From a virus: a DNA stretch of 64,000 nucleotides. The stretch is taken from positions 39,561 to 103,560 of IMG/VR virus record IMGVR_UViG_3300042356_001708; one strand, written 5' to 3'. A program made the position numbers and the translations under genes. Under the pieces are notes generated by a model. That model was given only the letters and a program-made list of their open reading frames with translations, ran no database searches and was not told the DNA's origin. Of this stretch, positions 1 through 64,000 are shown piece after piece; within the stretch, counting starts at the first letter, position 1, and the number at the start of each line of letters is the position of its first letter.

Positions 1-1
1 C

Positions 2-292
2 TCTAATGAAAAAAATTATATATCTGAAAAATTTTACGATTGTATTTTAACGGATACCATCCCAATCTATTTTGGTTGTAAAAATATTAAAGAAATATGG
101 TCATACAACGGGTACATTTTATTAGATAGTATTACCGATTATCAAAAAATTGAAGATATACTTAATTACATTCATACAAATTGCGATTACCTTTATGATG
201 TTATGTTACCTGAATTAAAAAAAATCAAAGAAGAGTATTTTAATAAAAATAATTTACTAAAGAAAATAAATGATATTGCCGGTAACATATGA
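2..292 (+). CDS. 5'-truncated glycosyltransferase, GT10 (alpha-1,3-fucosyltransferase)-like C-terminus
   Basis: Manual translation of frame 2: SNEKNYISEKFYDCILTDTIPIYFGCKNIKEIW..., resembling the GT10 motif Y(I/V)(T/S)EK...P(I/V)Y.G. TGA at 290-292 overlaps the next ATG (ATGA). Not in the ORF track. Confidence 0.7.
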   Translation, partial: SNEKNYISEKFYDCILTDTIPIYFGCKNIKEIWSYNGYILLDSITDYQKIEDILNYIHTNCDYLYDVMLPELKKIKEEYFNKNNLLKKINDIAGNI

Positions 293-1092
293 GATTTAAA
301 AGACCTATAACTCAAATAAGAATACATCATAGGAACTGTGGTTTTTTTTCAGATTTTTTAGTTATGTTATCCAACATTTATTATGTTAGGAATGAGTTAT
401 TTAATGATTTTCATATTGATTGGAGAACCTCACTATACTCATCAAATAATGAGAACATATATGATAAATATTTTTATCAACACAATGATGAAAACTGTAA
501 TTACAATAATGTTATAACTAATTTAACAGGGTATAATGCAATATTTGCAAATCATGTATTACATGAAGATGTGAGTGAAATTGAAATATATCGGTCATTA
601 TCATATGGTAATTTTTTAATGTATAATTACGGTCTACTTGAAGGTGAATTTTTTAAAAATTTTGATAGAAATTACTTCGGTGACCAAAAAATTTTAGGTA
701 TTCACAGACGGGGTACCGACCACGGACATCATGGTCAATTAATGTCTGACATAACATACTTAAATGAAATTAATAGAGAATTCAAAACAAATAATTACGA
801 TAAAATTTTTTTAATTACAGACCAATTAAGTTCGTTTGAATTCTTTAAAAAAGAACTTGGTAACTCATTAATTACCACCGACTCAACCATGTCGGATAGC
901 TCATGTGGTGTTCATTACAGACACGATGTAAGTCCTGAAAAAATCGCCTACGATGCATTAAGAGATTCTTATTTGTTGTCATTAACTGATTATAAATTAG
1001 TGACAAGAAGTAACCTATCAACATTTGCTTTATTATGTAATTTACAAAAAGATAATTTTAGACTAATTGATAAACATATTTTTTACCGATAA
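289..1092 (+). CDS. NodZ/GT23-like fucosyltransferase (GT-B, O-fucosyltransferase superfamily)
   Basis: Motifs CGFFS, LGIHRRGTD, KIFLITD and DSYLLSLTDYKLVTRSNLS match the three conserved fucosyltransferase motifs. Confidence 0.75.
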   Translation: MRFKRPITQIRIHHRNCGFFSDFLVMLSNIYYVRNELFNDFHIDWRTSLYSSNNENIYDKYFYQHNDENCNYNNVITNLTGYNAIFANHVLHEDVSEIEIYRSLSYGNFLMYNYGLLEGEFFKNFDRNYFGDQKILGIHRRGTDHGHHGQLMSDITYLNEINREFKTNNYDKIFLITDQLSSFEFFKKELGNSLITTDSTMSDSSCGVHYRHDVSPEKIAYDALRDSYLLSLTDYKLVTRSNLSTFALLCNLQKDNFRLIDKHIFYR

Positions 1093-1103
1093 AAAATAAT
1101 AAG

Positions 1104-3449: not shown

Positions 3450-3473
3450 TTGAATTTCGTAGTATTTATTGGT

Positions 3474-3854
3474 ATGGAATTTTACATTAAAAAAGGAGCT
3501 ACCCTACCATTATTAAAAATGCAAATTGTTAAAGATGGTAGAAGTGACTATCATAAATTTATGGATTTGATAGAAACTTCAACCATATTATTTTCAATGA
3601 TTGATGCCGATACGGGAATACCAAAATTCCTATCTAAACCTGCAGGTTTTGTTTCTAAAAATTTTTTAAATGAGGCTGCTTCAACTGAATACTATGTTTA
3701 TTATCAGTTTACGGCTAAAGACACAAATAAACCTGGTAGATATGAAGGTGAATTCCTCTTTAAAAATGAACAGGGAAATCTAATAGTTCCATTAAGAGAA
3801 AAACTTTACATTACAATTCAGGATAGTTTTATATCAGATAAGGCTTGTTGTTGA
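3474..3854 (+). CDS. BppU-N-like/Ig-like virion structural protein
   Basis: ATG at 3474 preferred over the TTG start at 3450. Pattern MEFYIKKGATLPLL...YQFTAKDTNKPGRYEGEF. Ends in CC. Confidence 0.5.
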   Translation: MEFYIKKGATLPLLKMQIVKDGRSDYHKFMDLIETSTILFSMIDADTGIPKFLSKPAGFVSKNFLNEAASTEYYVYYQFTAKDTNKPGRYEGEFLFKNEQGNLIVPLREKLYITIQDSFISDKACC

Positions 3855-3886
3855 TTTGACATTCTTTATTTAATATCTTAAATTTG
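3855..3886 (+). promoter_or_regulatory. Bacteroidota-type -33/-7 promoter for the DNA polymerase gene
   Basis: TTTG (3855-3858), 20-nt spacer, TAAATTTG (3879-3886) = TAnnTTTG. Confidence 0.7.
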
Positions 3887-3940
3887 CTTAAACGGTAAAC
3901 TCCAAGATAGTTTGGAAGCCAATATACCAATTTAAAATTT

Positions 3941-7068: not shown

Positions 7069-7071
7069 AAA

Positions 7072-8193: not shown

Positions 8194-8229
8194 TGTTTTT
8201 TATTTTATAAATATCAATATCTAATTGAA

Positions 8230-9861: not shown

Positions 9862-9898
9862 ACAGGACTAATTTATACTATATAAATAATCCTTTTTT

Positions 9899-11686: not shown

Positions 11687-11716
11687 AATTGGATATTTAT
11701 CAATAAGTGTATTACT

Positions 11717-12232: not shown

Positions 12233-12233
12233 T

Positions 12234-50339: not shown

Positions 50340-52093
50340 TGGGTGGTTATGAAAATATAGAGATACTTTTAGGTTCTGCAAAATTTGCAACGAGTCCTAA
50401 TCGTAATATGAGAATAACTCCATTTTTGGATGGTAAAATTCAGGAACTTGAAGAATATGATAGGTCGGCAATTATAAATTTACCCGAACTTTATAATTCC
50501 GAAAGGCAGGAGTGTTCAATATTTAGACCATCGTTTTCAACCAAAGTAATTTTTTACAACGCTTATACTGGGACAACTAATATCAATGGAACAAGTTATG
50601 GTCCGTTTTTAAATGAATTATTGTATACTGATGCTGAGAATTCAATAGTTGGAGGAACTCATCCAGGGACTTGGTATGGATATCCACCATATAAAGAATT
50701 TAATTTTTATAGAAACGATACTGATAGTGTTCATGTTGATTTTGCAACAAAATCTGCATTGACTTACAATTGGGGATATTATCTAAGTTATGCTTTTGAA
50801 AATAACTCAGGAAAAACATTCCAACATTATTTCTCTCCAACCAATTCAATTACTTGGACTTGTTCCGAAGGGATTCCATTTATTATTTCAAGGCAAGAAA
50901 TGAACGGAAGGGTTTTCATAGTGTTTAGATGTCCGATGAAACATAATTTGCTAAAAGGTGATTATGTTGAAATTGAGTTCCAAGGTGGGTGGGACGGTAT
51001 TAATGGGAATAAGTATTTCCAAGTTGATATGTTAGGAACTGAAAGTTATGGTAGTGATGAGATAATTTTTAACATTCAGGATATCGGTTACGATAGTCCA
51101 TTTTTCGCAAACTCCTCAATTGGATTATTTAAGAAGGTTGTTGATATTACCAACCCTGAGGATACTAAATCAATCTACTACGTTAGAAGACATAAAATAC
51201 TGACTAACACACAGGATTCAATACCATTAAAAGCTGCGTTTTCACAGAACGGGTTCTTTAGTAAGAAAAAATTTTTGACGAGCGCTTTAACGCCTAATTA
51301 TGTTTCTAGAGTTGTAGAACAAGACGGGTCTCAAAACTTCAACATTACTTTTTCTAAAGACATTATAATATCAGGATATACTGATAATTTAAACCGACCA
51401 TTAAGTGAACTTTATTTAACAATAATTAATAAGGGATATTTTGGATGGTTTAACCGACCAAGACCCAACACTACAACTAATTCTGCCTTAAAACAAGGTC
51501 ATAAATTTAACATATCGTTTACCTCTGGAAATTGGTGGGACGACAACAATTTGTTGAACGATACTAATATTGGAACAAATTCATATACTAAAACATTTAA
51601 TGGTGAAAATTATGAATTTTATTATAATCAAGATTTAGTAAGTGGTGATACTATAGATGGAGATTTTTGTGAATATAATAGTTATTTGCAAGAAGAAAGT
51701 GTAATATCTGAATTTTATCATAAGTTTGAATTTAACAATTTGTTGTTTGATATAACATTTAGTGCGTCAACCAATAGAAACGGTTATTATTACAAACCAC
51801 ATAATGGTGTTACGATTAATGTATTTTCTGATTACATTGAGGAGAGTAATGTTTTAGGGATTTTAAATGTTCCACCATACGCCTTTTATTCTGAAACCTT
51901 GGGGACCCTAAGATGGAGAGACATTTACCCTTATGGTTATGTTGACTCAAACGGGAGAGGGGTTAATTTCCCATATATGAATAATGCTCATTATCCGTTA
52001 CAGAATATAGATTTTAAAATATATCCTGAAAATAACATAAACGAATTTGTATTTGGTGCGATACAATTACCTACAGTTGATGATTGTGAATAA
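50339..52093 (+). CDS. Putative baseplate/tail structural protein
   Basis: Translationally coupled (TAATG); WRDIYPYGYVD..G.GVNFPY.NNAHY near the C-terminus. Confidence 0.55.
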   Translation: MGGYENIEILLGSAKFATSPNRNMRITPFLDGKIQELEEYDRSAIINLPELYNSERQECSIFRPSFSTKVIFYNAYTGTTNINGTSYGPFLNELLYTDAENSIVGGTHPGTWYGYPPYKEFNFYRNDTDSVHVDFATKSALTYNWGYYLSYAFENNSGKTFQHYFSPTNSITWTCSEGIPFIISRQEMNGRVFIVFRCPMKHNLLKGDYVEIEFQGGWDGINGNKYFQVDMLGTESYGSDEIIFNIQDIGYDSPFFANSSIGLFKKVVDITNPEDTKSIYYVRRHKILTNTQDSIPLKAAFSQNGFFSKKKFLTSALTPNYVSRVVEQDGSQNFNITFSKDIIISGYTDNLNRPLSELYLTIINKGYFGWFNRPRPNTTTNSALKQGHKFNISFTSGNWWDDNNLLNDTNIGTNSYTKTFNGENYEFYYNQDLVSGDTIDGDFCEYNSYLQEESVISEFYHKFEFNNLLFDITFSASTNRNGYYYKPHNGVTINVFSDYIEESNVLGILNVPPYAFYSETLGTLRWRDIYPYGYVDSNGRGVNFPYMNNAHYPLQNIDFKIYPENNINEFVFGAIQLPTVDDCE

Positions 52094-52865
52094 ATTTAAA
52101 ATATTAGTAAATGACAACGATAGGGAGATAGTAATTCCTGTTGAAACAAATGAAGATTATTTAGACCAACTAAATAATATTGAGAACTATGATGACCAAG
52201 TAGTTAAGAGGGTTATTAACCCCAACGAAGATTACGAAGTTGCTAGATTTACTCACGCTCAACATGATGAATCATTAAGGACTGACGTTAATTATCAATT
52301 TTTTTTCACACCTACAGGGTCAACCCCATCAAATATAAATTATGTTAATTCATATGTTAGTGAAGGGTTTACACCCCAACAAATTTATTATTTTTCAAAT
52401 CCATTTAGAAACTCATTTTTTAAATTGGATTTTTACGATACCACTCAAGATACTAATCAAATTAATTACATTACAATAATATTACCTACAACTCAAGGAG
52501 AAACAGAACCTGCAGTTGTTGGAGTTAATAATGTGAATGTTAAAATACCAAAGTATAAATTAGATTTTTTAGGTGATAAAGAAGGGTTTTTCCTATATTG
52601 GTTACGAAGTACCCAATACCTAAACATATCTACTTTTTATATGAGTGCAAAGTTTTTTGATGCAAAATTAGGGATTTTTGTAAAGTTTATGAATGCTCCA
52701 CAAAATTCAATTGGAAGTGGGAATTCAAATTTTAATCCTTCAAATTATTTTTATTATAAGGTTGTTTTAGATTATGAAACTCTAACCTATAAAATTTTTA
52801 CATTAGATGATGTGAGAGTTGGAGAAACAACCCCAATAACCTGGTATGAATATGTTAACCCATAA
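52080..52865 (+). CDS. Putative structural protein
   Basis: Start probably ATG 52080 or GTG 52086; SFFKLDFYD, FYMSAKFFDAK. Confidence 0.55.
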   Translation: MIVNKFKILVNDNDREIVIPVETNEDYLDQLNNIENYDDQVVKRVINPNEDYEVARFTHAQHDESLRTDVNYQFFFTPTGSTPSNINYVNSYVSEGFTPQQIYYFSNPFRNSFFKLDFYDTTQDTNQINYITIILPTTQGETEPAVVGVNNVNVKIPKYKLDFLGDKEGFFLYWLRSTQYLNISTFYMSAKFFDAKLGIFVKFMNAPQNSIGSGNSNFNPSNYFYYKVVLDYETLTYKIFTLDDVRVGETTPITWYEYVNP

Positions 52866-54019
52866 TGGATAATCAAAATAAATATTATTTTAAAATATCT
52901 CCTGAAGTTATATTGAATAAAATTTTCACTATTCAATATCCATCGGGAACAACAAGTAATCAGTTAGATGAAGACCCTTGTTGTGAAGTTACTGCAACAA
53001 CTACTACGGTTGTTGATTATGGGTATGCTACAGTATATTCTTCTATGACTCAGTTGTTAAGTGGGGGAACTAATGGAGAATCAACTCTTACAGATTTATC
53101 GGTTCCAATTCTCTTGTTAGAAAGTGCTGTAGACTACGGACATTATTCAGTGTTTGATGGTGCGATTTCACAAAAAGAAGTGGTGTGTAATTTTATATTT
53201 TCCGCAAGTTCGGCCAATCCGTACACAGTAATTGTTTATAATACTTCCAATAATCTTTCAAATTTTATACAACAAACAACTTTTCAAATTGACTGGGGGG
53301 ATGGGTATGTTGAGGATATTAATACGTTTACACCTGAAAACTTAACACACACTTATAATAATTTTGGGGGACCTGTAACGTATATGATAAATTTAATACA
53401 GACGACTCCTTGGGGAATTAATTCTGTGGTTAAATATTTAGAAATACCTTATACGGGTGTGACAGTGGATAATCCGAACGGTACTGCATATTTCACACCT
53501 ATGAATGGTAATTGGGCTGATACATCAGTATCTTATGACTACATTTTTTCAGGAGATGCTGTAAATTTAGTAAGTGACCAAGTTAGTGGTAATTATATTG
53601 ATACTCCTTTCTTAATCACTGCTCAAACATCATCAAGATTATCAGAGTTAAGAAGTTACGGACCTCAAAAATACCGACAAACTCTAATAATCCAAAATGG
53701 TGAACCTTTTGGACAGATAACTGAAATAAATGAAAACTATACTGCTTATACAATCCAAAATAGTAGTTACGTTGATTTTACTGACGGAGCAACGATACAG
53801 GTGTTTGAATCATTTGGTTTAATTGATACTTGGTTAGTTCAAGAACCAATTGTGAAAGAAGAAGAATTAATTAATGTTGCATTTGAGCCCGAAATACAAA
53901 CGAATGTATTTATTGATAGAGGAAAAAATTCAGGACTTGAGAAAACAGAGAGATTAAATGAGGTGGATAGTATTGGGGACTTGGAAAAATATGGATATAA
54001 ATTTTTTAAATTTAGTTAA
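52865..54019 (+). CDS. Structural protein with a PKD-like Ig domain
   Basis: FQIDWGDG...LTHTY. Confidence 0.6.
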   Translation: MDNQNKYYFKISPEVILNKIFTIQYPSGTTSNQLDEDPCCEVTATTTTVVDYGYATVYSSMTQLLSGGTNGESTLTDLSVPILLLESAVDYGHYSVFDGAISQKEVVCNFIFSASSANPYTVIVYNTSNNLSNFIQQTTFQIDWGDGYVEDINTFTPENLTHTYNNFGGPVTYMINLIQTTPWGINSVVKYLEIPYTGVTVDNPNGTAYFTPMNGNWADTSVSYDYIFSGDAVNLVSDQVSGNYIDTPFLITAQTSSRLSELRSYGPQKYRQTLIIQNGEPFGQITEINENYTAYTIQNSSYVDFTDGATIQVFESFGLIDTWLVQEPIVKEEELINVAFEPEIQTNVFIDRGKNSGLEKTERLNEVDSIGDLEKYGYKFFKFS

Positions 54020-54021
54020 AA

Positions 54022-54930
54022 ATGGCAGTAGGTTCATATGGAACAATTAGACCAGCGGATGTCTCACCGGCAGATATTGAGGTAATATTAAATTACACCC
54101 CATCAAGGGATGTGACTAGTAATTTTATTCTGAAAAAATTAGATGCGAGAACAATTATTAGACCTTACTTTAATAATGGTGACACTGGAGGGAATCCTAA
54201 TATTGAGATATTAGGGGGGTTATATAATCTAACATTACCATCGTCTGAATTTAATAAGTTAGGTATCTATACTTTATATATAAGACCTGCACAAATCAGA
54301 ACTACAATAACGGATTGTGGAGTTTTGACCTCGTTACCAAACATTAAGGGGATTGTTATTGACATAAGTAATGTTCCTAATGAATTCCAAAATAAATTCA
54401 TTCCTCAAGAGTTGGTTGGACATCGTGTTGAATACCTAAGAGATTCAGGAGCTAAAATACCTAACTTTTTTAGATTAATCACATCAAATTTTTATTGTGA
54501 GGCGGTTACTGAAAATTTAGTTAACTCAGTACAAAAAGCTGTTAGATATAGATATACGGATTCTAAAACTAATTTGATGTTTTGTACTTTATCTCCATCT
54601 TCAGCACCTACTTCAAAACCAAATGCAACTCCATTTATCGGACAACCCGGACAAAATATAATAATTAGTAATACATTTTTTAACCCAACTTCTGTTGAAG
54701 TTGAGATGGTTGAACACGATGCTTCCACATTGGCAATTGCCTTGTTTGGTAATCAAACAAAATCTATTGATGATGGTATCTACACAATGTATGATAGTGG
54801 TAATAACATTTATAAACAATACAATTTGTTTGAAGTAAGAGACCAATATAATAAATTGTTATTTGAAGTTAGACAAGATAGAAATAATAACATTGACTTT
54901 AGTAAAAACTTTAACAATATAGTTCAGTAA
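54022..54930 (+). CDS. Putative structural protein
   Basis: In the same operon as the baseplate genes; no recognisable catalytic motif. Confidence 0.55.
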   Translation: MAVGSYGTIRPADVSPADIEVILNYTPSRDVTSNFILKKLDARTIIRPYFNNGDTGGNPNIEILGGLYNLTLPSSEFNKLGIYTLYIRPAQIRTTITDCGVLTSLPNIKGIVIDISNVPNEFQNKFIPQELVGHRVEYLRDSGAKIPNFFRLITSNFYCEAVTENLVNSVQKAVRYRYTDSKTNLMFCTLSPSSAPTSKPNATPFIGQPGQNIIISNTFFNPTSVEVEMVEHDASTLAIALFGNQTKSIDDGIYTMYDSGNNIYKQYNLFEVRDQYNKLLFEVRQDRNNNIDFSKNFNNIVQ

Positions 54931-57875
54931 TGGCGAGAAAGTTATATAGATATCCACCGAGACCATCTAGCGGAGCTGGCACGTTTTCGGATAATATTGT
55001 TGGATTCCAAGTGGTTGATGGGGGAGGTCTAACTCAAGGTAATTTTGAGTTTACGTCAAGTTTAACTGAAAAGGTTAACCGAACTTTCTCAATTGGAGCA
55101 TTTTCATCACCAATAACATTAGATAATTTACAGATAGAGTCTGTTGAGGAAACTAAACGAATTGTTGCTAAAGAATTTGGAGTTTATCCAAATTTTGACT
55201 TATCTAATGTAACTAAGTTCTCAACATATGGACCATTAACCAAAAGATTTGCATCTTCAATTACACATATTATTAATTATTTTCCTGCAGCAATTGAGTT
55301 ATATGCTTTAGGGGGTGATTTTATATCGGGTTATACTGCGGTTAACATTGAGTTTGATATTGAAGAAGATACGTCAACTTTTAGTATTCCGATTGGTAAG
55401 ATAAGTAATCCATTTGAAATTGATTTTACGTCTAATTCTACTAGAAATATTGAAACTAAAGAATTTGAGGTTTCATATCTGAGAAATATGACATTAGAGT
55501 ATAGTAAGTATGCGGTATATGTCAGAGATATCCAATACGAGATATTAAACATGACCCCAACTACTAGTTTAACTAGTGGTTATCTTAATTTAACTGTTGC
55601 AGGTAATCCATTTTCAGGTGAAGTTAATTCTTACGAAACTCTAATAATTAAACCTAACGATTATTACACCGAAGTTGCATTTACTGAACCGTTTGATGAA
55701 ATTGAGAAATATCTGTTAAATAGATTAGTAACTCCCAAATACAGTGCTATTTTCCAAGTTCCAAAACAAAATGACAACGGCTCAACATTTGTTGGTACTG
55801 AAACTGCCACTTGGCCATTGTACGGAAAATGGAATTTGGATATTATTACAAATAATTTCACATCGTATATTAACCAAATTAATACTATCGCTACAAATTT
55901 TGATAACTCAAAGACAAATTTAATTTCAAGATTTTTAGTAACGGACGCCTTTAAAGAATTTGATACTTACGACCAAAGAGTTGATAAAGTATTACATATA
56001 TATGGTAGAAGTTTTGATGAAGTTAAAAAATTCATTGACGCACTTGCGTATATGAATTCTGTAAATTATAATACTAAGAATGATATACCATCGGAACTAC
56101 TTAAAAATTTGTCACAAACATTAGGATGGAATATAAACGTATCTCCTGTGACTGAAGAAGATTTTTTGAAGTCGGTATTTGGGAATGATACTAAGTCCCC
56201 ATATCCTGGAATGTCAAGAAGTTTAACACCAAGTGAAATTAACTATCAATTTTATAAAAATTTAATTCTTAATTCGGCGTACCTATTTAAATCAAAAGGT
56301 ACGAGAAGAGCGTTAGAATTCTTATTAAGATTGGTTGGAGCTCCTGAAGCGTTAATTGAGTTTAATGAGACAGTTTATCTTGCTGACCAAAAAATTAATA
56401 TGAGAGATTTTAGAACTGAGTGGGCTAAAATATCTGGAGGAACTAAACTTGAAGAGACAATTAGTTTTAATCCTAATGACACATATTCAATTTTTGGACA
56501 AACTTTTTCAGGATATACTGCGACCACAAATGTTGTAACGGTAGATACTTTAGAAGGGGATTACCCTATAGATGAAGAGGGATACCCAAAAACACCTGCA
56601 AACACTAGTTCATTCTTCTTTCAGTTAGGTGCTGGTTGGTATGAGTTAACACCCCCTCACCAAAGTAATCAGGATGTTAATAATACCGAATCTGTATTCA
56701 CGGGGCAAAACACTAATGTTCAAACTGATTTTAAAAAATTCACTTATGGACAACAATATCTTGATAGATTTAGAAATTTCCCATATATGGATTTAGGTTT
56801 TAAATTAACCAAAATTAGTGATAATAAAAAGAGTTGGTCGTTTAGAGATAAAACTAGAATATCTAATGATGGAGGGTTTAATGCATTCTACTATGCAAAT
56901 GACGAGAGATTAGTATTGAACGTCAAAAACATTGATTTATTCATGAATCCTGCTGCGGGTCTTGTATTTGATGTGTGGACCATGTCATCAAAATATGGAT
57001 ATCCGATTTCAAATAATACAACACAACAAGTTTATGGTAATGGGATGAGGGTGACATCAAGTGTCCCACCTAATAAACAATCATTTTTTGAATTTGCTAA
57101 CACATTTTGGCAAAATAAAGTAAATGTTGCAAACCGACAAATATCAAGTGGTTATGATGACGTGTCATTAATTTATTGGAGGTATTTGGAATCTGCAAAT
57201 CAAGTTGGTATTCCTAATGATAATTTCACATATCAAAAATTAATTGATTATGTTAAAAATTTAGGTACGTATTGGCCAAAATTAGCGGAACAACTAATCC
57301 CATCGTCAACTATTTGGAATACGGGTATTAAATATAGTAACGCCCCATTCCAAAGACAAAAACACACATATAAGATTCCAAGAAGTTGTAGTGCGTTTAT
57401 TCCTCCGACACTTTGTAAACCCTGTATTATTGATGGGGATTTATTTTTACATGGAGCATGTCAGGGAGTAACATCATTTCCAATTTTTCCTTGGTTAAAT
57501 GGAACGACTAGTTACACAAGTTTCCAATCATTGTTAAATGAAATAATTTTTAATTACGTTTCTCAGAAAATATCGCAAGGGTATACATGTAATCAAAATT
57601 CTGTCTCAACAACATGGAAGATGATAGTGTCAATAGATGGTATTGATGTAATTTCAAGTATTATATATAATGGCAATGGACCTACGGATACTCCAAGTAA
57701 TTCGGATTGGACCAATGCTTTAAATCAATATTTACCGAATTTGGTTAGTTATGGTTATACTTTTGAGATTATTGATAGTAATGTTTTAATAAAGTATTTA
57801 GGATTTAGTCCTATTGCGAATAGTAGTAGTATTGAAATAAAATTAAACGTAGATTTTAGTATAAGTTGTAGTTAA
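54930..57875 (+). CDS. Baseplate wedge protein with a P2 gpI/T4 gp7-like core
   Basis: IPSELLKNLSQTLGW...YLFKSKGTRRALEFLLRLVG...E. Confidence 0.65.
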   Translation: MARKLYRYPPRPSSGAGTFSDNIVGFQVVDGGGLTQGNFEFTSSLTEKVNRTFSIGAFSSPITLDNLQIESVEETKRIVAKEFGVYPNFDLSNVTKFSTYGPLTKRFASSITHIINYFPAAIELYALGGDFISGYTAVNIEFDIEEDTSTFSIPIGKISNPFEIDFTSNSTRNIETKEFEVSYLRNMTLEYSKYAVYVRDIQYEILNMTPTTSLTSGYLNLTVAGNPFSGEVNSYETLIIKPNDYYTEVAFTEPFDEIEKYLLNRLVTPKYSAIFQVPKQNDNGSTFVGTETATWPLYGKWNLDIITNNFTSYINQINTIATNFDNSKTNLISRFLVTDAFKEFDTYDQRVDKVLHIYGRSFDEVKKFIDALAYMNSVNYNTKNDIPSELLKNLSQTLGWNINVSPVTEEDFLKSVFGNDTKSPYPGMSRSLTPSEINYQFYKNLILNSAYLFKSKGTRRALEFLLRLVGAPEALIEFNETVYLADQKINMRDFRTEWAKISGGTKLEETISFNPNDTYSIFGQTFSGYTATTNVVTVDTLEGDYPIDEEGYPKTPANTSSFFFQLGAGWYELTPPHQSNQDVNNTESVFTGQNTNVQTDFKKFTYGQQYLDRFRNFPYMDLGFKLTKISDNKKSWSFRDKTRISNDGGFNAFYYANDERLVLNVKNIDLFMNPAAGLVFDVWTMSSKYGYPISNNTTQQVYGNGMRVTSSVPPNKQSFFEFANTFWQNKVNVANRQISSGYDDVSLIYWRYLESANQVGIPNDNFTYQKLIDYVKNLGTYWPKLAEQLIPSSTIWNTGIKYSNAPFQRQKHTYKIPRSCSAFIPPTLCKPCIIDGDLFLHGACQGVTSFPIFPWLNGTTSYTSFQSLLNEIIFNYVSQKISQGYTCNQNSVSTTWKMIVSIDGIDVISSIIYNGNGPTDTPSNSDWTNALNQYLPNLVSYGYTFEIIDSNVLIKYLGFSPIANSSSIEIKLNVDFSISCS

Positions 57876-60800
57876 TGGCACAGAATGTAATTGGTTTAGA
57901 AATCCTTGGATTAACCGGATGTTGTGATGGTAATATTTTATGTAGTAGTGGTGCTGCGACACTTAACATATTAACTGGTAGTGGCCCATTTGTTGCACAA
58001 ATTATTTCACCATATGTTGGAACTTCAGTTTTATTAGTTAGAGAGGCCTATACTTTCACAGGGTTATCTGCAGGTACATATACAATATTTGTTAGTGATT
58101 ATGACACTCCAGTAAATAATACGGCAACAATTGATTTTTATATTTCATCAGGAATATCGGCAAATACAATTGCTGTTGATAGCACTTGTGGTTTAAATAA
58201 TGGGGAAATTGAAATCACATTATCACCAAATTTAGGTAATTCAAATACCTTTAGTTTGTACGATGTAGATGATACTTTATTATCTGTAACACAATCAACA
58301 GACAATCCATACACAATATCAGGATTATCACCGAATGCTTATTATGTTATTATAGAAGATGGTGGAGGATGTAGTGCCAACACAGGAACTATGGTTATTG
58401 ATAGTTCTTATGGTAGTTTATCAATTAACGCTGAAGTTACTAATACATCACCATGTGCTTTAACCCCAAATGGTGAAATTTTATTAACACTATATAATGA
58501 AATACCTCCTGTTACAGTTACTTGGTCAACTAATGTTGGTGTACAGTCAAGTGATTATAATTTAACAGGATTAACAAATACAAATTATGTTGTAACAGTT
58601 AGTGATGGTTCAGGTTGTGAAGTTACTCAAACTGTTATAGTTGGGTTAGACGATAGATTAGGAATTGCGGAATTTTCATTCACAAATCCATCTTGTTTTT
58701 TAAGTGATGGCGTTGTTAATATAACATTATCAGGAGGTTCTTTACCTATCACATATTACACGTCAAATGGCTCAACATTTACAAGTGGTAGAACGGTATC
58801 ATTTACAGGTTTATCTTCAGGGGCGTTTAGTTTTACGGGAGTAAGTAGTACTTGTAATGTAAGTCAAACCTTTAATTTACAAACTGCAAATTCATTCGGA
58901 GTAATTTCGTCAAATAATGGATTTAGAGATTGTTCAAATAATAGTGGGTTTATATCAACCACAATTAATGGGGGAGGTGCTCCGTTATCCGCATCCTGTG
59001 TTAGTAACAACGGATTTGTTTCTACCCAATCCAATTTACCTGCAAATTCTACAATTACTTTTGGTAGTTTAACTGCTGGGACGTATACAATTAGTATCAC
59101 TGATGCGACATCCGCCTGTACTTACACTGATACTATAACTTTAACTCAAGATTTAGGATTTGATTTTGAACTTATACCTACTAACACCACTTGTGGAATT
59201 AATAATGGGACCTGTTTTATTGATATTACAACAACAATAACTGGACAAACATTCACTTTGGGGTTATCTAACGGAGCGACTATAAGAAATTTAACAACTG
59301 ATTACACCTTACAAAATATCCCACAAGGAAGTTACGGGGTAACGTTAACAAATAATTCAGGTTGTTCTATAACTAAAAATTTTACAGTAGGTGGTTCAAA
59401 TGGAGTTGATTTTAATTTAGTTAATTCAGGATGTTTACCACAAGGAACATTAACCGCATTTATTAATAGTGGGACACCTCCTTATACATTAACTTGGGAG
59501 GGAGATGTTTCGGGTCAAACAGGATTTGCGGTTTACAATTTAAGTAATGGAAATTATGGATTAACAGTCACAGATTCACAAGGATGCTCAACAAGAAAAA
59601 CCGTAACAGTAAAATGTGAATTAAGAGAAGTTACAACATATAGTTATGATTTCGGTAGTGGTGATTTTGTTTGTGGAAATGATGATACTGTAGGATTTTT
59701 GCAGATGTTAAATCAAACATTTGTTGAATTAACTAACGGACAATCAAATTGTTTAATGAACCTGGCTTATTTTTATGTTGATATTGAAGTGGGAACTACT
59801 GCGACAACACTAGATTTATACACGTCTACATCTTTAACTGATGTTCCAACAAATTTACAGTATGCCCAGATTGTTCAAAATTATTTAAATAGTTTAGGAG
59901 TATTTGGAAGTTTAATTGTTGATTATGAAAGTGGAAGAATTGTTATAAATAGTTTGTGTGATAATCCTTTACAACCTTCTGATATAGTTAAAATCTCGGT
60001 TAGAATTTTAATGAATGTTACTTGTGACCAAGTAATACAAATAACACCAACACCAAGTATCACCCCAACATCAACATCAGGATTAATTCCTGTCCCATCA
60101 CCTGAAGTTAGTGTCACACCAACATTAACTCCTCAACCTTCCTTCACGCCAACAGTTACTCCAACAGTTACGGTTACCCCTACAAATACTGTAACACCTA
60201 CAAAAACGATTACCCCAACACCTTCAGACGCAAGTCCATGCTCAATTACTATTGATAGTATTAGTCCATCGGCTTGTGACCCAAATACCTCAACGTATTA
60301 CATTTCAGGAACTAATGTGGTTCATGTATCTAATCCACCATCAACAGGAACGTTAATAATTGCAAATGGATGTTCTCGTACACAAACAATTTATTATCCA
60401 CCATTTAGTTCTGATTACAATATATCATTTACAGATATTACTGCTGACGGTCAATACTGCTCAATATATGTTACATTTAGTGATGCTAACTGTAGTGCGT
60501 TGTATACATATAAAGCTCCTGATTATTGCAGTAATACACCAACACCAACGGTGACTCCTACTAAAACACCAACACCAACGGTGACTAAAACAGTTACTCC
60601 TACTGTAACTAAAACTCCTACAACCACACCCACTCCTACTGTAACTAAAACTCCTACAACTACACCTACACCGACAAAAACAACAATTACATTACCAACA
60701 CCTACAGTTACACCGACTAAGACAGTAACTCCAACGGTAACTAAGACAGTAACACCTACGGTCACTCCGACTAAAACACCAACACCAACACCAACTAAAA

Positions 60801-61075
60801 CATCACCAGCTTGTGAATGTTATAATGTTAATAATACTAACCCAAGCCCTGTGTCAATTACCTACATTGATTGTATAGATAGAGAGGTAATTATAACTGT
60901 TAATGGATTAACGACTAGTCCTAATTTCTGTGCTAAAGGATTCAAACCACCAACACCACCATTTAGAGTATCTTATAATAAGGTTGGAGCTTGTTCCGGA
61001 GGATTCTGTCTTACGACCCCAACACCAACACCAACAAAAACAAAAACACCAACCCCAACCTCGGTAAAGAAGTAA
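57875..61075 (+). CDS. SprB-repeat, Cys-rich fibre/adhesin-like protein with mucin-like Pro/Thr tracts
   Basis: Repeated units TCG..NG.I.I...G..P...W......L..G.Y.VTV.D..GC; PT tracts near the C-terminus. Confidence 0.75.
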   Translation: MAQNVIGLEILGLTGCCDGNILCSSGAATLNILTGSGPFVAQIISPYVGTSVLLVREAYTFTGLSAGTYTIFVSDYDTPVNNTATIDFYISSGISANTIAVDSTCGLNNGEIEITLSPNLGNSNTFSLYDVDDTLLSVTQSTDNPYTISGLSPNAYYVIIEDGGGCSANTGTMVIDSSYGSLSINAEVTNTSPCALTPNGEILLTLYNEIPPVTVTWSTNVGVQSSDYNLTGLTNTNYVVTVSDGSGCEVTQTVIVGLDDRLGIAEFSFTNPSCFLSDGVVNITLSGGSLPITYYTSNGSTFTSGRTVSFTGLSSGAFSFTGVSSTCNVSQTFNLQTANSFGVISSNNGFRDCSNNSGFISTTINGGGAPLSASCVSNNGFVSTQSNLPANSTITFGSLTAGTYTISITDATSACTYTDTITLTQDLGFDFELIPTNTTCGINNGTCFIDITTTITGQTFTLGLSNGATIRNLTTDYTLQNIPQGSYGVTLTNNSGCSITKNFTVGGSNGVDFNLVNSGCLPQGTLTAFINSGTPPYTLTWEGDVSGQTGFAVYNLSNGNYGLTVTDSQGCSTRKTVTVKCELREVTTYSYDFGSGDFVCGNDDTVGFLQMLNQTFVELTNGQSNCLMNLAYFYVDIEVGTTATTLDLYTSTSLTDVPTNLQYAQIVQNYLNSLGVFGSLIVDYESGRIVINSLCDNPLQPSDIVKISVRILMNVTCDQVIQITPTPSITPTSTSGLIPVPSPEVSVTPTLTPQPSFTPTVTPTVTVTPTNTVTPTKTITPTPSDASPCSITIDSISPSACDPNTSTYYISGTNVVHVSNPPSTGTLIIANGCSRTQTIYYPPFSSDYNISFTDITADGQYCSIYVTFSDANCSALYTYKAPDYCSNTPTPTVTPTKTPTPTVTKTVTPTVTKTPTTTPTPTVTKTPTTTPTPTKTTITLPTPTVTPTKTVTPTVTKTVTPTVTPTKTPTPTPTKTSPACECYNVNNTNPSPVSITYIDCIDREVIITVNGLTTSPNFCAKGFKPPTPPFRVSYNKVGACSGGFCLTTPTPTPTKTKTPTPTSVKK
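60535..60808 (+). repeat. Imperfect coding tandem repeats (TPTPTVTKTPT)
   Basis: acaccaacaccaacggtgact repeated with a 30-bp period; actcctactgtaactaaaactcctacaac repeated with a 36-bp period. Confidence 0.85.
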
Positions 61076-61133
61076 AAACTAGTTACAAAATTATTTGAGT
61101 TGATATATTTATGAAATAAAGAAATAATATATT

Positions 61134-63668
61134 ATGGCTCAAATATTAATCACCAACTATACCGGTACAGTAACTTCGGATATTGTGGTATGTGAAGCTA
61201 ATCCAGGACCAACAATTGGGACTTGTTATAATTTAGCAACATTATATGGAACTGCTGGTCAAATATCCCCAACAACACCATTACCCGCTTGGTATACGTT
61301 ACCAAATGACTTTGATTATGACACATATTGTTATATTCAATTATCGGCGAGTACGACATTAGTCACAGTTCCCCAATTAATTCAATGCGGAGTAGTGCCG
61401 GAAGAAACTTGGGGATTTGAATCTTGTGGACAACCACTCAATAAAAATATTTATGTATTTTATGATACATCAGGTTCTTATCCTGACGGAATAAATATTA
61501 CGGGGGAAACTTATGAAACTTTAAGTGGAGCATCTCAATCTATTAGAAATTGGTATTTTGGATTAGTACAAAATAGTGGGTATACAGGACAATTATTTGA
61601 AATACCTGTTGCTAATGAAAGATATATAAATTGGGCATGTTACCCTTATTTAGGGTCAACTACTGGAGGAACACTATCAGACTCATCTACGGTTCAAATT
61701 CAAATGGGTAGAATTACACATGCTAGTAATGGTCCCCAAGGGCCTACCGCAACTGCAATATGGACAAGTCCTATTGTTGAAAGAATTGCGTTAGGTTTAG
61801 ATTTACAGACAGGATTCCCTTTTCCTTCCGCACCTGGATATAGTTTAGGAGTACCCTTCAACCACGATAATTATAATAGTATTGGTTGTAAATTAGGTGA
61901 GTTTGCTGGTGGGGATACTAATTATATTGCAATCATGGTGTTGAATGAAGTTGGACAAACGGGAGGAGATTGTTCGCCTATTTCTAATAATGGAGGAGCG
62001 GACTTTATACAACCATATTTTACTTTTGAAAACAACCCATCAAATAATAGTTTCATACATTTGTCAAATAGTTCAGGACAATTAAACCCAAGTAACCCTT
62101 TATCCTCAATTTATGTTCCTGATTATTGCGGACCGGTATTTTCCTCAAGCCCTTCAATTAGGAGAGATTATGAATCTTGGTTAAAAGTTTGGGAGGATGT
62201 TGAGATAAATCTTAATGGATTTGCTAAAGCGTTTTTATTCCCGGTACCAACAAAAAGAGTTACCGCTCAAATCATTGATGAGTTTCCAAATAATCCTGCG
62301 GTAAACCGTTATGACGGGGCTCCCAATGGATTTGGGACGCTTTATCAAGCAATTGAAATTATTGAGGGAGAAGTACCGCAGGCCCCCTCGTTCTTCCAAT
62401 CAAATTATTGTGAAGGAATTTTTGGTAGTACAAACACTGTGTGGCCTTATCCTAATAAACGTTATAATGAGTTTTCGGCGTATACATATTGCCAAGGTCA
62501 ATATTATGACTTTAGTCCATTGAGTTATTATAATAAGTTTACAGTATTCACTGGAACTACCGCTTATTCAAACTTACCTACACAGTATAAAAATGGTGCG
62601 GGTTTGAAAAATTTTGGATGGACAGTTGACGCAACTATTACGGGATTTACACAATCGTTAGTTGAAAATGACCTTAACGGTTATTTAAATACTGTTTTAG
62701 CGGGAACTAAAATATACTCAACTACTGAACCCTCAGGTGCTAATGAAGGTAATGTGTATACACTTCAAGATTTTGAAGGTTGTTGGACATATACCGGACC
62801 AAGACTTGATGGACAACCTAGTTATGTTAATGTGAACACAATATATGAATTTACAAGTTGTGAAGAATGTCAAGGAGATGTAGACCCACAAATTGTTTCA
62901 TTTAAATATAACGGATATAAAAACTCTTTCCAAACTGGTGGTATTGTATCAACTGGAGGAACCCAAGACGCTAAAATTGCAATACATGGAATACCTTTTG
63001 ATAGTGTTGACATTCAGATGACTTGGCCACTATCCTTAGGTTCAGACATTGCGGGAGGGTTATTCTATTTAGACCACCCATCAACGTGGACACAATACAC
63101 TATGGGTGTAACTACCGCAATAACAGTGACATTAGATGCTTATGGAATTCATGAAATCAATTGGAGATTGTTAAATGGGGGTTCAGGATATGAATACATT
63201 AATTTTGAAATTACCGGTACAACAAGTTTGGCAACAATTACTCCAGCTTTAAGTGAATTATATTTAACGGATGCGGATAATGGTGACTTATCGCCTAATC
63301 CGAGTACGTATTCTTTAGTTTTATGTAAATATCCTTCAGGATTACTGTTTAATTATATAATGGTTGTTGGGGAATCATCGGTAACTGCGACAACTAGTGG
63401 GGATGCTTGTTCATCATTTGCAATTGATAAATCTTATTTAATAAACGGGTTATCAAATACGGCCACCTATCAGGACTTTTTAACTCATAATTTAATTTCA
63501 AATCCATTGGTTTTAAAAGATGGCCAAACAGTTGCTCCTATTAACGGAAGTAATAATTGGATTGCGGTTACCATAGGTATGTATTACGTTGATGGGTACT
63601 CATTTAAGAAACTTGCGTTACAAATTAACAGTTTAGGAACAATAATAAACATTGTAGAATGTCCATAA
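61134..63668 (+). CDS. Cys-rich appendage protein with a vWA/MIDAS-like motif
   Basis: IYVFYDTSGS (DxSxS after a hydrophobic strand); TATTTAT upstream. Confidence 0.55.
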   Translation: MAQILITNYTGTVTSDIVVCEANPGPTIGTCYNLATLYGTAGQISPTTPLPAWYTLPNDFDYDTYCYIQLSASTTLVTVPQLIQCGVVPEETWGFESCGQPLNKNIYVFYDTSGSYPDGINITGETYETLSGASQSIRNWYFGLVQNSGYTGQLFEIPVANERYINWACYPYLGSTTGGTLSDSSTVQIQMGRITHASNGPQGPTATAIWTSPIVERIALGLDLQTGFPFPSAPGYSLGVPFNHDNYNSIGCKLGEFAGGDTNYIAIMVLNEVGQTGGDCSPISNNGGADFIQPYFTFENNPSNNSFIHLSNSSGQLNPSNPLSSIYVPDYCGPVFSSSPSIRRDYESWLKVWEDVEINLNGFAKAFLFPVPTKRVTAQIIDEFPNNPAVNRYDGAPNGFGTLYQAIEIIEGEVPQAPSFFQSNYCEGIFGSTNTVWPYPNKRYNEFSAYTYCQGQYYDFSPLSYYNKFTVFTGTTAYSNLPTQYKNGAGLKNFGWTVDATITGFTQSLVENDLNGYLNTVLAGTKIYSTTEPSGANEGNVYTLQDFEGCWTYTGPRLDGQPSYVNVNTIYEFTSCEECQGDVDPQIVSFKYNGYKNSFQTGGIVSTGGTQDAKIAIHGIPFDSVDIQMTWPLSLGSDIAGGLFYLDHPSTWTQYTMGVTTAITVTLDAYGIHEINWRLLNGGSGYEYINFEITGTTSLATITPALSELYLTDADNGDLSPNPSTYSLVLCKYPSGLLFNYIMVVGESSVTATTSGDACSSFAIDKSYLINGLSNTATYQDFLTHNLISNPLVLKDGQTVAPINGSNNWIAVTIGMYYVDGYSFKKLALQINSLGTIINIVECP

Positions 63669-63688
63669 AAAAATAAAAAAATAAAAAA

Positions 63689-64000
63689 ATGCCATACGTT
63701 TATATAACATCATTTTCGGGACCACCGGCAACAATTTCAGTTTGTGATACGTTAACTGGAACAATTTGCTATACTTACCCAACGCAACTTACAGATTTGG
63801 GACCATTCCCATTTATCATAAATTTACCACCTGATTTTAATGAGGTTGGTGGTATAACGTTGACCGCACAATCGGATAATGGATGTTCCATTGTAGACTC
63901 TACTATCTGTTCAATATTACCAACACCATCGGCGACTTCAGGGCCGGTACCTTGTTTTGAGGTTGTTATTAATGGTGATTTTGATGGAAGTTTATCAGGA
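63689..64000 (+). CDS. 3'-truncated Cys-containing appendage protein
   Basis: Manual translation MPYVYITSFSGPPATISVCDTLTGTICYTYP...LPPDF... open to the window end. Not in the ORF track. Confidence 0.75.
   Translation, partial: MPYVYITSFSGPPATISVCDTLTGTICYTYPTQLTDLGPFPFIINLPPDFNEVGGITLTAQSDNGCSIVDSTICSILPTPSATSGPVPCFEVVINGDFDGSLSG

Follow-up and report, generated by a model that had tools for sequence, protein, structure and literature searches.

Mycobacteriophages, siphoviruses of Actinobacteria, are said to offer a proven precedent for virion glycosylation: their glycosyltransferases (GTs) reportedly modify S/T-rich segments of the structural proteins of the same phage while these are in the cytoplasm, the acceptors lying in extensions at the C-termini of capsid and tail-tube proteins. 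For mycobacteriophage virion glycosylation by phage-encoded GTs, this work is cited, as Freeman et al. 2023, in a passage of PMC12582341. Among protists, the GT60 enzymes of Dictyostelium and Trypanosoma cruzi initiate mucin-type O-glycosylation on Ser/Thr-rich tracts (PMC8724618). Thr/Pro-rich mucin tracts are known substrates of the GT60/GT27 family (PMC8724618, PMC7185993), and DxH replaces DxD in GT27 and GT60 (PMC7185993). At least two Schiff-positive glycoprotein bands were found in virions of Xanthomonas phage XacN1, at band level and with no protein or GT assigned; its authors drew no link from the glycoproteins to TP tracts or the GT60 family (Yoshikawa et al., 2018; PMC5852040).

The phage locus and its putative glycosylation island

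The stretch of DNA analysed (the window, 64,000 nucleotides) forms the right-hand end of a 103.5-kb fragment from a ~300-kb T4-like jumbo phage, a member of a large uncultured clade; by completeness estimate, the fragment represents only 35% of the genome. Its features are collected in Table 1. The GT genes that an initial annotation had placed at 1-3449 were confirmed. They belong to an island whose conserved core is GT60 plus a methyltransferase-HtrL-GT2 fusion, the latter lying beside GT60 in 68 of 80 related loci.

The GT60 protein matched PF11397 at E 9e-73, its DxH motif (D92-S93-H94) is invariant, and neither a signal peptide nor a membrane segment was found at its N-terminus. Its AF2 model (pLDDT 95.8) includes a C-terminal beta-domain of its own (aa ~326-415), and the top ~44 PDB matches of that model (Foldseek, E ~1e-10) were all mucin-type polypeptide GalNAc-transferases. 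By HMM, DxH motif and fold, the enzyme is predicted to be a soluble polypeptide alpha-GlcNAc-transferase. The fusion comprises a SAM methyltransferase (aa ~10-200; Methyltransf_2, E 0.0012; 33-35% identity to annotated phage methyltransferases), an HtrL_YibB domain (aa 224-471; PF09612, E 1.1e-9) and a GT2 domain (aa ~519-619; PF00535, below its cut-off), and across its HtrL-GT2 part it shares 39-41% identity with proteins of XacN1, Xoo-sp13, CM1 and RAS14.

Between the core genes lies a cassette that varies among phages: here an FkbM/SAM methyltransferase, a GT10 fucosyltransferase and a NodZ/FUT8-like enzyme, and in relatives GT10, GT61, GT25 and RXYLT1-like enzymes. The full GT10 ORF (305 aa) begins 626 nt upstream of the window and matched PF00852 at E 6.8e-13 (3.4e-6 on the window fragment); GT10 occurs in 16 of the 80 loci. 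The 289-1092 protein had no Pfam match, and its Atlas neighbours, at 0.95-0.96 by features and TM 0.82 by structure, belong to the NodZ, FUT8_N_cat and O-FucT families, a lead toward a fucosyltransferase of that kind. Given these tailoring genes (FkbM and other methyltransferases, GT10, NodZ/FUT8-like), the fucosylated, possibly methylated glycan that had been proposed is plausible in this genome, although only 12-16 of 80 relatives have them. Together with GT60, they lend support by gene content to the proposed means for cytoplasmic glycosylation of the phage's own proteins.

Table 1. Features of the window and of the adjoining fragment (positions in the window unless marked as genome)
Feature	Position	Strand	Basis or remark
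GT60 gene	genome 35633-36883, ~2.7 kb upstream of window		PF11397
Second, clade-specific GT cluster (GT2_5+GT2, GT92-like, GT2)	genome 12587-18316		
GT10-family fucosyltransferase, 3' end	2..292	+	PF00852
NodZ/FUT8/O-FucT-like (GT23-type) putative fucosyltransferase, 267 aa	289..1092	+	Atlas neighbours
Methyltransferase + HtrL_YibB + GT2 fusion, 781 aa	1104..3449	+	PF09612, PF00535
Tail sheath protein, 1118 aa	13545..16901	+	Phage_sheath_1C and Phage_sheath_1, C-terminal
Sheath insertion domain, aa ~110-430	13872..14834	+	8 of 13 motif sites
Sheath mucin-like Thr-run/TP loop, aa 289-330	14409..14534	+	composition
Distal baseplate/fibre-like gene block	45084..57875	+	motif excess
Fibre-like protein, 1066 aa	57875..61075	+	tandem ~80-aa beta-domains, then (TPTxT)n tracts
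Mucin-like PT tracts of 57875-61075 protein, aa 722-1064	60038..61066	+	
Fibre-like protein, 844 aa	61134..63668	+	motif excess, without PT tract

Thr/Pro tracts as candidate acceptors

Mucin-like tracts received only a passing mention in the initial annotation. Their presence in virion proteins is real: they occur in the sheath and in the 57875-61075 protein, which has weak SprB-repeat, SdrD_B and Y_Y_Y matches and carries six PT tracts in the style of TPTPTVTPTKT, the longest of 70 aa. The sheath T/P loop lies at the same position in 68 of 79 homologues; its sequence is hypervariable with T/P composition kept, a conserved NPC...C pair flanks its second half, and it was modelled as disordered (AF2, pLDDT 31-40). 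No such loop was found in the sheaths of T4, Mel-JY01, immuto or XacN1. Among candidate acceptors we rank this loop first; the protein that bears it is certain to be part of the virion and is present there in high copy number.

The block upstream of GT60 contains four co-oriented ORFs that encode Thr runs or TP repeats, in one case a TP repeat of 138 aa. Of 80 related loci, 74 have a PT-tract ORF no more than 10 kb from GT60, and most often the two are neighbours. Virion proteins of the control phages without GT60 (T4, Mel-JY01 and immuto) had no long tracts. XacN1 encodes GT60 (ORF334, 49% identity) and HtrL-GT2 (ORF330, 41%), and several ORFs around its sheath gene (350, 369, 370, 372 and 384) contain very long TP tracts; this is the phage whose virions have Schiff-positive proteins. 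Because of the GT60 family, the linkage of tracts to its gene, and the presence in XacN1 of tracts without an excess of the motif discussed below, the Thr/Pro tracts are likely acceptors, and better candidates than that motif.

A protein O-glycosylation island whose GT60 core targets Thr/Pro tracts, with the motif most likely not the core signal, is our preferred explanation, to which we would give about an even chance. It draws on what was observed of gene content and synteny, the family and fold of the enzyme, the conservation of the tracts and the statistics of the motif. In the infected-cell cytoplasm, GT60 would attach GlcNAc to Thr/Ser residues within disordered Thr runs and (TP)n tracts, namely those of the sheath loop, the stalks of fibre-like proteins and the four tract-bearing proteins encoded upstream; cassette enzymes would afterwards lengthen the sugar and cap it, in this phage probably by fucosylation and methylation, to yield a virion bearing mucin-like, phage-specific glycan patches. 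In this scheme the sugar and its acceptor sites are inferred, as are the timing and the function of the island.

The [S/T]-G-x-[S/T] motif of outer virion proteins

The tetrapeptide [S/T]-G-x-[S/T] had been proposed as the sequon of this machinery. All 13 sheath tetrapeptides named for it, every example quoted between 45084 and 63668, and the total of 3 copies across PolB, NrdA, DnaB, UvsX/RecA, gp32/SSB and SNF2 were found as written. The enrichment over composition-matched shuffles put forward as its check was also obtained: virion proteins hold 60 copies against 30.7 expected (0 of 2000 whole-protein shuffles reached 60), and non-structural proteins 8 against 6.0 (p 0.25). By the same shuffles, the sheath has 13 against 3.1 and the remaining virion proteins 47 against 27.6 (p 0.001). 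Block shuffles of 20-100 aa, controlling for local S/T/G-rich patches, agreed (virion, 60 against 31, z 5; sheath, 13 against 3.5). The component pairs stand at 1.08x ([ST]G), 1.19x (G.[ST]) and 0.91x ([ST]..[ST]), and dipeptides do not explain the excess. The [S/T]-A-x-T variant is likewise enriched in virion proteins (20 against 9.4; others 0 against 2.1). When all 8,000 a-b-x-c patterns were scanned without bias in 24 putative virion proteins, SG.T (32 against 9.7) and TG.T (34 against 11.9) came top after the PT-tract patterns, with Thr preferred at position +3.

The excess is confined to outer virion proteins, falling in the sheath insertion and in distal tail proteins (sheath plus distal, ~50 against 21), the tube, wedge and giant inner proteins having 10 copies against 9 expected. 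Following gp25/gp6-like wedge genes, the distal block comprises 45084-50339 (6 copies, 3.4 expected), 50339-52093 (4, 1.0), 52047-52865 (2, 0.2), 52865-54019 (3, 0.9), 54022-54930 (0, 0.4) and 54930-57875 (3, 1.9), none with a PHROG or Pfam family match. Downstream, the 57875-61075 protein has 11 sites against 7.2 expected and the 61134-63668 protein, without a family match in profile searches, 8 against 2.9 (p 0.007). Among the control phages no excess was found in T4 (33 against 28.8), Microcystis phage Mel-JY01 (13 against 13.9) or XacN1 (31 against 28.0; sheath copies 0), and a mild one was found in Flavobacterium phage immuto (54 against 38.5), which lacks GT60. In a 98%-complete relative, G001, the sheath has 15 copies against 5.0, and homologues of the distal baseplate/fibre-like proteins are enriched 2-5x. 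Across 79 sheath homologues the mean is 6.9 sites against 3.0 (range 4-13), the present sheath standing at the extreme of its family. Over-representation of the motif on outer virion proteins is thus real and clade-wide.

Its proposed role as the signal for this machinery was not supported. XacN1, with GT60, HtrL-GT2, TP tracts and Schiff-positive virion proteins, has no motif excess; immuto, without GT60, is mildly enriched; the excess in the sheath family is supplied by six conserved alignment columns, the remaining sites (2.7 per sequence) being at chance level; and four of the 11 sites of the 57875-61075 protein (aa 62, 149, 231 and 311) are one position of its tandem ~80-aa repeat, with the common context y-x-[FIL]-[ST]-G-L-[ST]-x-x-x-[YF]. 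In relatives, about one-quarter of motif contexts have the period-3 Gly pattern of low-complexity G-x-x runs. Sites had been expected on surface loops; in the confident part of the AF2 sheath model (pLDDT ~80-87 at aa 110-290 and 330-430), most lie instead at the ends of beta-strands (157, 344 and 406); site 147 belongs to a hairpin turn, 276 opens a strand, and coil regions hold 212 and 245. The best-supported reading is that the motif is a conserved strand-end/turn signature of the clade's surface beta-domains, a reading weakly founded on the secondary-structure string of one AF2 model with a mean pLDDT of 48.

Set against that structural reading are the restriction to outer virion proteins, the recurrence in the 98%-complete relative and the pattern in the N-terminal domain family of a 1319-aa protein. 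There the motif is enriched 7x (11.7 against 1.7 expected), with ten conserved columns in which S and T are freely exchanged, the x position is hypervariable and A is the only substitute for G, and sites outside these columns are also 2.6x above chance; such a pattern would suit a functional signal carrying a hydroxyl no less well than a turn. Also weighed is the reading of [S/T]-[G/A]-x-[S/T] as a true O-glycosylation sequon on folded outer virion domains, recognized by a GT other than the GT60 core, either from the clade-specific second GT cluster or the NodZ/O-FucT-like enzyme, such that two kinds of glycan attachment would exist on the virion. The robust, outer-virion-specific and clade-wide excess speaks for it, as does the absence of excess from T4, Mel-JY01 and XacN1, all without the second cluster, a homologue of which was found in none of the four control phages. 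The motif is also rare in the island's own enzymes (0.2-0.46x, data points that are not independent because the sequences are homologous). Nevertheless, no enzyme could be linked to the motif, immuto is mildly enriched without the candidate GTs, modelled sites fall within or at the ends of strands, the fixed sheath columns with chance-level turnover elsewhere count against it, repeated domains and, in relatives, G-x-x runs contribute some of the signal, and the acceptors known for the sole polypeptide-GT family identified in this phage are disordered Thr/Pro segments. We regard a true sequon as unlikely. Of the initial interpretation, the gene content for self-protein glycosylation therefore found support and the motif as its sequon, with no enzyme linked, did not.

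Alternative roles of the island and comparison with known systems

GT-rich islands of phages may serve the modification of DNA or of host glycans, a point against our preferred explanation. It is conceivable, and in our judgement distinctly improbable, that the virion is not glycosylated at all, the island modifying phage DNA, host surface polysaccharide/LPS or a phage-made polysaccharide, the tracts being linkers and the motif structural. HtrL/YibB, GT2, GT25 and GT9-type families are typical of LPS/polysaccharide synthesis, the island adjoins the DNA polymerase gene, and classic phage GTs, such as T4 a-gt and b-gt, modify DNA. Yet the conserved lead enzyme belongs by HMM, motif and fold to a polypeptide-transferase family, GT60 is tightly linked to tract ORFs in the 74 loci and in a second lineage, and XacN1 virions contain Schiff-positive proteins; the 103-kb fragment also has no thymidylate-synthase/dCMP-hydroxymethylase homologue, weak evidence because it is 35% complete. 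Finally, as the GT60 family includes the Hyp-specific Gnt1, GT60 might act in the manner of Skp1-type Gnt1 on Hyp made in the tracts by a 2OG-Fe(II) hydroxylase, rather than on Thr/Ser, for which a 209-aa ORF among the tract genes (genome 31225-31854; H116-x-D118...H164; Asp_Arg_Hydrox sub-threshold, E 0.11; Atlas neighbours in 2OG-Fe(II) oxygenase families, 0.93-0.95) is a candidate, but a PF13640 search of the fragment gave no match and the ORF lies outside the conserved system, since just one of the 80 loci has it close to GT60 and five large relatives, one 98% complete, lack it, and this route is very improbable.

Motif-directed O-glycosylation of folded domains is carried out by EOGT, on EGF C-x-x-G-x-[S/T]-G-x-x-C, and by POFUT1/2. 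Were the motif a true sequon, these would be the nearest analogy, with a short S/T-Gly signal on a folded beta-rich domain, GT61 in a relative's cassette and the O-FucT/NodZ-like gene here; unlike theirs, the motif lies outside any EGF or TSR context, lacks conserved cysteines nearby and has no enzyme assigned. The mycobacteriophage system differs in its GT families, with no GT60, and in having no defined four-residue sequon. Chlorovirus PBCV-1 resembles this phage in its virus-encoded cytoplasmic machinery, GT/methyltransferase fusions and non-host sequons, its capsid having atypical sequons, fucose and methylated sugars; it differs as a eukaryotic algal virus with unrelated enzymes and N-linkage to Asn. 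The same analogy was also drawn by the XacN1 authors (PMC5852040).

For GT60-directed glycosylation of Thr/Pro tracts, the explanation preferred here, XacN1 shares both core enzymes and long TP tracts near the sheath gene; unlike this phage, it has no motif excess, its sheath is without tract or motif, and its accessory enzymes are a carbamoyltransferase and GT9. Among solved structures, metazoan GT27 enzymes (GalNAc-T1, -T2, -T4, -T10 and others) come closest to the phage model, with the GT-A fold and DxH in common at 10-17% identity; they are Golgi enzymes that use UDP-GalNAc and carry a lectin domain. The protist GT60 enzymes of Dictyostelium and T. cruzi, like that of the phage, combine PF11397 and DxH with no ricin-type lectin domain, and protist mucins, like the predicted phage acceptors, contain Thr runs and (PTxT)n tracts (PMC8724618, PMC7185993). 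Unlike its protist counterparts, the phage enzyme has the C-terminal beta-domain and no membrane anchor, and is predicted to act as a soluble protein in the bacterial cytoplasm, with virion proteins as its predicted targets.

Gene content and the predicted glycosylation island

The record that holds the window (bases 39561-103560) is 103,560 bp long and was rated 35% complete by CheckV; its GC content is about 32% and no tRNAs were found. Its capsid, tail, and replication genes (see table) point to a distant T4-like myovirus. Sheaths of cultured phages share only 29-36% identity with the sheath encoded here, over its C-terminal core, and sheaths 60-66% identical over their full length occur on hundreds of IMG/VR contigs; one relative, with a record of 294.9 kb, is rated 98% complete. 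Weak matches to SprB repeats and a T9SS sorting domain, together with sheath matches to Flavobacterium phages, give only a hint of a Bacteroidota host. The neighbour of the major capsid gene encodes a CAP (cysteine-rich secretory protein) domain, which is unusual for a phage. In a larger protein, a complete Fe/Mn superoxide dismutase (Sod_Fe_N and Sod_Fe_C, residues 37-226) precedes about 300 residues that match no family; this protein is kept beside PolB in relatives.

Features of the phage record (genome, position in the whole record; window, position in the window; L002 and L003, stretches of the same record)
Feature	Position	Remarks
Capsid protein	upstream of window	gp23-type
CAP domain protein, 204 aa	genome 2905-3519 (L002, - strand)	
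Second glycosyltransferase cluster	genome 12587-18866, other strand	GT2, GT2_5+GT2, GT92-like protein, methyltransferase
Fibre-like protein, 731 aa	genome 28123-30318 (L003:8123-10318)	
209-aa ORF	genome 31225-31854 (L003:11225-11854)	H116-x-D118...H164
Three tandem tract genes	genome 31882-35578 (L003:11882-15578)	common ~65-residue N-terminal module, then Thr run
GT60 enzyme (PF11397)	genome 35633-36883	polypeptide alpha-GlcNAc-transferase family of CAZy; 246 bits, cut-off 21, E 9.2e-73
FkbM + Methyltransf_24 protein	between GT60 and GT10	
GT10 fucosyltransferase	3' end at window 2-292, rest upstream	PF00852, 49.1 bits, cut-off 23.9, full 305-aa ORF
NodZ/FUT8/O-FucT-like protein	window 289-1092	267 aa
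HtrL-GT2	window 1104-3449	SAM-methyltransferase + HtrL_YibB + GT2 fusion, 781 aa
Superoxide dismutase protein, 543 aa	window 8230-9861, - strand	
Sheath	window 13545-16901	
Sheath Thr-run/TP loop	sheath aa 289-330	
Sheath Cys frame	sheath aa ~305-332 (window ~14457-14540)	
57875 protein	window 57875-61075	six tracts, aa 722-1064
Other tail genes		gp19-like tube, T4 baseplate protein, gp25- and gp6-like wedge subunits
Replication and nucleotide genes		PolB, SNF2 helicase, gp32, UvsX, DnaB, NrdAB

The initial annotation had placed a glycosyltransferase (GT) cluster at positions 1-3449. That cluster is present, but it constitutes only the last part of a larger island beginning upstream of the window. 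Family score, a DxH motif, and a GT-A fold assign the leading enzyme of the island to GT60, and it is predicted to transfer GlcNAc from UDP-GlcNAc to Ser/Thr (or Hyp) residues of a polypeptide. The DxH motif, which replaces DxD in both GT27 and GT60 (PMC7185993), is D92-S93-H94; in 41 relatives, the most distant at 35% identity, D92 and H94 never vary, and S93 is kept in at least 90%. Searches of PDB sequences with the single sequence and with a profile yielded no significant match, and hence a fold search was needed; with a model of pLDDT 95.8, the top ~44 PDB fold matches were all mucin-type polypeptide GalNAc-transferases (probability 1.00). The enzyme starts at the first GT-A strand and lacks a hydrophobic N-terminal anchor. 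Its GT-A core is followed by a confidently modelled, all-beta C-terminal domain (aa ~326-415) that may bind substrate or glycan; animal ppGalNAc-Ts, in contrast, possess a ricin-type lectin domain at this location. GT60 relatives number more than 7,000 at 90% clustering and form 4,688 clusters at 50% identity, and among them are giant proteins of 800-2,460 aa (P0122, P0123, P0125, P0132, and others) with two to four tandem GT60 domains. In Dictyostelium and T. cruzi, GT60 enzymes start the mucin-type O-glycosylation of Ser/Thr-rich tracts (PMC8724618).

The organization of the island was compared across 80 IMG/VR loci found with the GT60 enzyme (64-78% identity). HtrL-GT2 lies downstream of GT60 in 68 of these, with PolB next in 45, and a methyltransferase or GT10 is present in only 12-16. 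The genes between GT60 and HtrL-GT2 vary among the phages, and include those for GT10, GT61, GT25, and RXYLT1-like enzymes. The glycan cassette of one relative encodes a 482-aa protein (L034:17063-18508) with a uridine-kinase/phosphoribulokinase domain (E 2.5e-34), which hints that this phage supplies nucleotide-sugar precursors too.

Thr/Pro tracts as predicted acceptors

In the block upstream of GT60, four co-oriented ORFs bear Thr runs or (TP)n repeats, and three of the four directly precede it. The C-terminal parts of these three differ, comprising a papain-like peptidase region, a 138-residue TP repeat, and a Cys-rich part, respectively; a papain-family protease is also encoded near a TP-rich giant ORF in Xanthomonas phage XacN1. 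A tract-bearing ORF was found within 10 kb of GT60 in 74 of the 80 loci, mostly directly upstream. The tract loop of the sheath is predicted to be disordered. Of 79 homologues, 68 have a loop at this position, hypervariable in sequence but with the T/P composition retained. In most homologues (L087-L166), the second half of this loop lies within a conserved Asn-Pro-Cys ... Cys-[YF]-[ST]-Gly frame, which suggests closure by a disulfide or a metal.

Only four cultured phages, XacN1, Xoo-sp13, CM1, and RAS14, were found to encode GT60 (45-49% identity), and the same four encode HtrL-GT2 (39-41% identity). In XacN1, TP tracts of great length are present in ORFs 350, 369, 370, 372, and 384, which surround the sheath gene, and purified virions displayed at least two Schiff-positive glycoprotein bands, for which its authors suggested phage GTs as the makers (PMC5852040). 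T4, Microcystis phage Mel-JY01, and Flavobacterium phage immuto have neither GT60 nor long tracts. Thus, the tracts, unlike the motif discussed below, accompany the conserved enzyme pair in two lineages. It is likely, as proposed in the initial annotation, that the phage encodes a virion O-glycosylation system, and the Thr/Pro tracts are the most probable acceptors.

It seems less likely that the island serves instead to modify DNA or a host glycan. This would leave both the polypeptide-transferase fold and the linkage to tracts unexplained, and PF00303 (thymidylate synthase/dCMP hydroxymethylase), a pointer to glycosylated hmC DNA, had no match in the fragment, itself only 35% complete. A Skp1-like route through hydroxyproline, with a phage 2OG-Fe(II) oxygenase, was also considered given a 209-aa ORF among the tract genes, a probable hydroxylase judging from its H-x-D...H residues, a sub-threshold Asp_Arg_Hydrox match, and 2OG-oxygenase neighbours in the Atlas; it was demoted because the prolyl-hydroxylase family PF13640 is unmatched in the phage's own fragment and the ORF is missing from five large relatives, as it is from 79 of the 80 loci.

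The [S/T]-G-x-[S/T] motif

The initial annotation had further assigned to this system its own sequon, [S/T]-G-x-[S/T]. As observations, its counts were accurate: the 13 tetrapeptides listed for the sheath are exactly those found there, all of the examples quoted for 45084-63668 were located, and 3 copies were counted in the six named replication proteins, for which about 3 had been reported. Enrichment over composition-matched shuffles of whole proteins was also confirmed, with 60 motifs in virion proteins compared to 30.7 expected (z 5.1; none of 2000 shuffles reached 60), 47 compared to 27.6 with the sheath omitted, and no excess in non-structural proteins (8 vs 6.0). Confining the shuffling to blocks of 20-100 residues, as a control for local S/T/G-rich patches, left the excess unchanged. 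A DNA-level or dipeptide origin was rejected because [ST]G (1.08x) and G.[ST] (1.19x) are near expectation, as is [ST]..[ST] (0.91x), while the three-position combination reaches 1.9x. The motif was the clear outlier among 40 [ST]X.[ST] and [ST].X[ST] patterns, followed by [ST]A.T (20 vs 9.4). As a guard against post-hoc choice, all 8,000 single-residue a-b-x-c patterns were scanned, using 24 putative virion proteins from across the entire fragment; the highest ranks behind the Pro/Thr-tract patterns went to SG.T (32 vs 9.7) and TG.T (34 vs 11.9), with Thr preferred at +3. The excess is held by the sheath and distal tail proteins (~50 vs 21), the latter without families in PHROGs or Pfam; no excess is seen in the tube protein, in wedge subunits, or in the pair of giant proteins after the tube (10 vs 9).

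Over-representation of the motif extends throughout the clade. No excess was found in virion proteins of T4 (33 vs 28.8, with 0 in the gp18 sheath), in Mel-JY01 (13 vs 13.9), or in the virion-region proteins of XacN1 (31 vs 28.0), the sheath of which has neither motif nor tract; immuto has a mild excess (54 vs 38.5). The T4, Mel-JY01, and XacN1 counts show that beta-rich phage tail proteins are not enriched in general, and the motif is at least clade-specific because [ST]G[ST] is not enriched here (31 vs 30.9). A clade-wide figure of 2.4x, for ORFs that precede GT60, is too high owing to homologous sequences and (G-x-x)n low-complexity runs, and its z-score was consequently not relied upon.

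The motif is probably not the sequon of the predicted O-glycosylation system: it does not co-vary with the GT60 and HtrL-GT2 pair, since XacN1 encodes both enzymes yet lacks the excess. A structural signature is the likelier reading, with roughly an even chance of being correct. In the sheath family, the excess is concentrated in six alignment columns where half or more of the sequences carry the motif, the remaining sites (2.7 per sequence) being no more frequent than by chance (3.0); the sheath encoded here is the extreme among 79, with 8 sites outside these columns. The full-length AF2 model of the sheath had a mean pLDDT of 48, usable for the insertion domain only. By secondary structure alone, seven sites in its confident parts appear to end beta-strands (157, 344, and 406), form a hairpin turn (147), start a strand (276), or lie in coil (212 and 245). 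Four sites in the 57875 protein map to one position, y-x-[FIL]-[ST]-G-L-[ST]-x-x-x-[YF], within an ~80-residue domain that is repeated in tandem, and a quarter of the motif contexts in relatives have a period-3 Gly pattern, being low-complexity G-x-x runs.

It seems unlikely that phi-[S/T]-[G/A]-x-[S/T] constitutes a second, private signal beside tract glycosylation, read by a clade-specific cytoplasmic GT on folded surface domains of sheath, baseplate, and fibre proteins. A clade-specific enzyme-motif pair can be entertained because homologues of the second GT cluster are missing from every control phage. Consistent with this notion, and counting against a purely structural reading, the N-terminal domain of a 1319-aa protein encoded beside the island has 11.7 motif sites per ~650 residues compared to 1.7 expected (20 sequences, only 47-59% identical); in ten conserved columns S and T are freely swapped, x is hypervariable, and G is exchanged only with A, and the non-conserved sites are also 2.6x above chance. 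The 2-5x excess recurs in the 98%-complete relative, in both its distal proteins and its sheath (15 vs 5.0), which has no tract. The 731-aa fibre-like protein has 11 motif sites, mostly in its N-terminal third; its C-terminal two thirds consist of arrayed, short, Asn-rich repeats of the type N-N-x-I-G-x-x-F that probably form a beta-helix.

Implications and relation to known systems

No account of phage GT60/PF11397 enzymes, of their link to tracts, or of Thr-rich glycosylated jumbo-phage proteins was found in the searchable literature beyond the remark on XacN1. If the tracts are glycosylated, very abundant uncultured jumbo phages would coat their tails, including the hundreds of copies of the contractile sheath subunit, with mucin-like glycans built by a changeable gene cassette, with consequences for phage stability, adhesion, and evasion of recognition by hosts or grazers. 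As GT60 and GT27 are, to our knowledge, otherwise known from eukaryotes, the evolutionary origin of mucin-type glycosylation would be concerned as well. The idea is directly testable because XacN1, with the same enzyme pair, is in culture. The motif provides a caution, and also a lead, in that strong and specific enrichment of a short pattern on virion surfaces need not tie it to the obvious transferase. If it does turn out to be a sequon, no earlier one would have been defined for a phage; as a second signal, and if other T4-like clades have S/T motifs of their own, it would imply private pairs of sequon and transferase in different phage lineages, serving to coat the virion.

Virion glycosylation of the mycobacteriophage type involves phage GTs together with S/T-rich C-terminal extensions on capsid and tail-tube subunits. 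The system predicted here does not conform to this type: the 162-aa tube protein bears neither tract nor motif, the enzymes belong to other families, and the tracts, rather than extending C-termini, form internal loops and stalks of sheath and fibre-like proteins.
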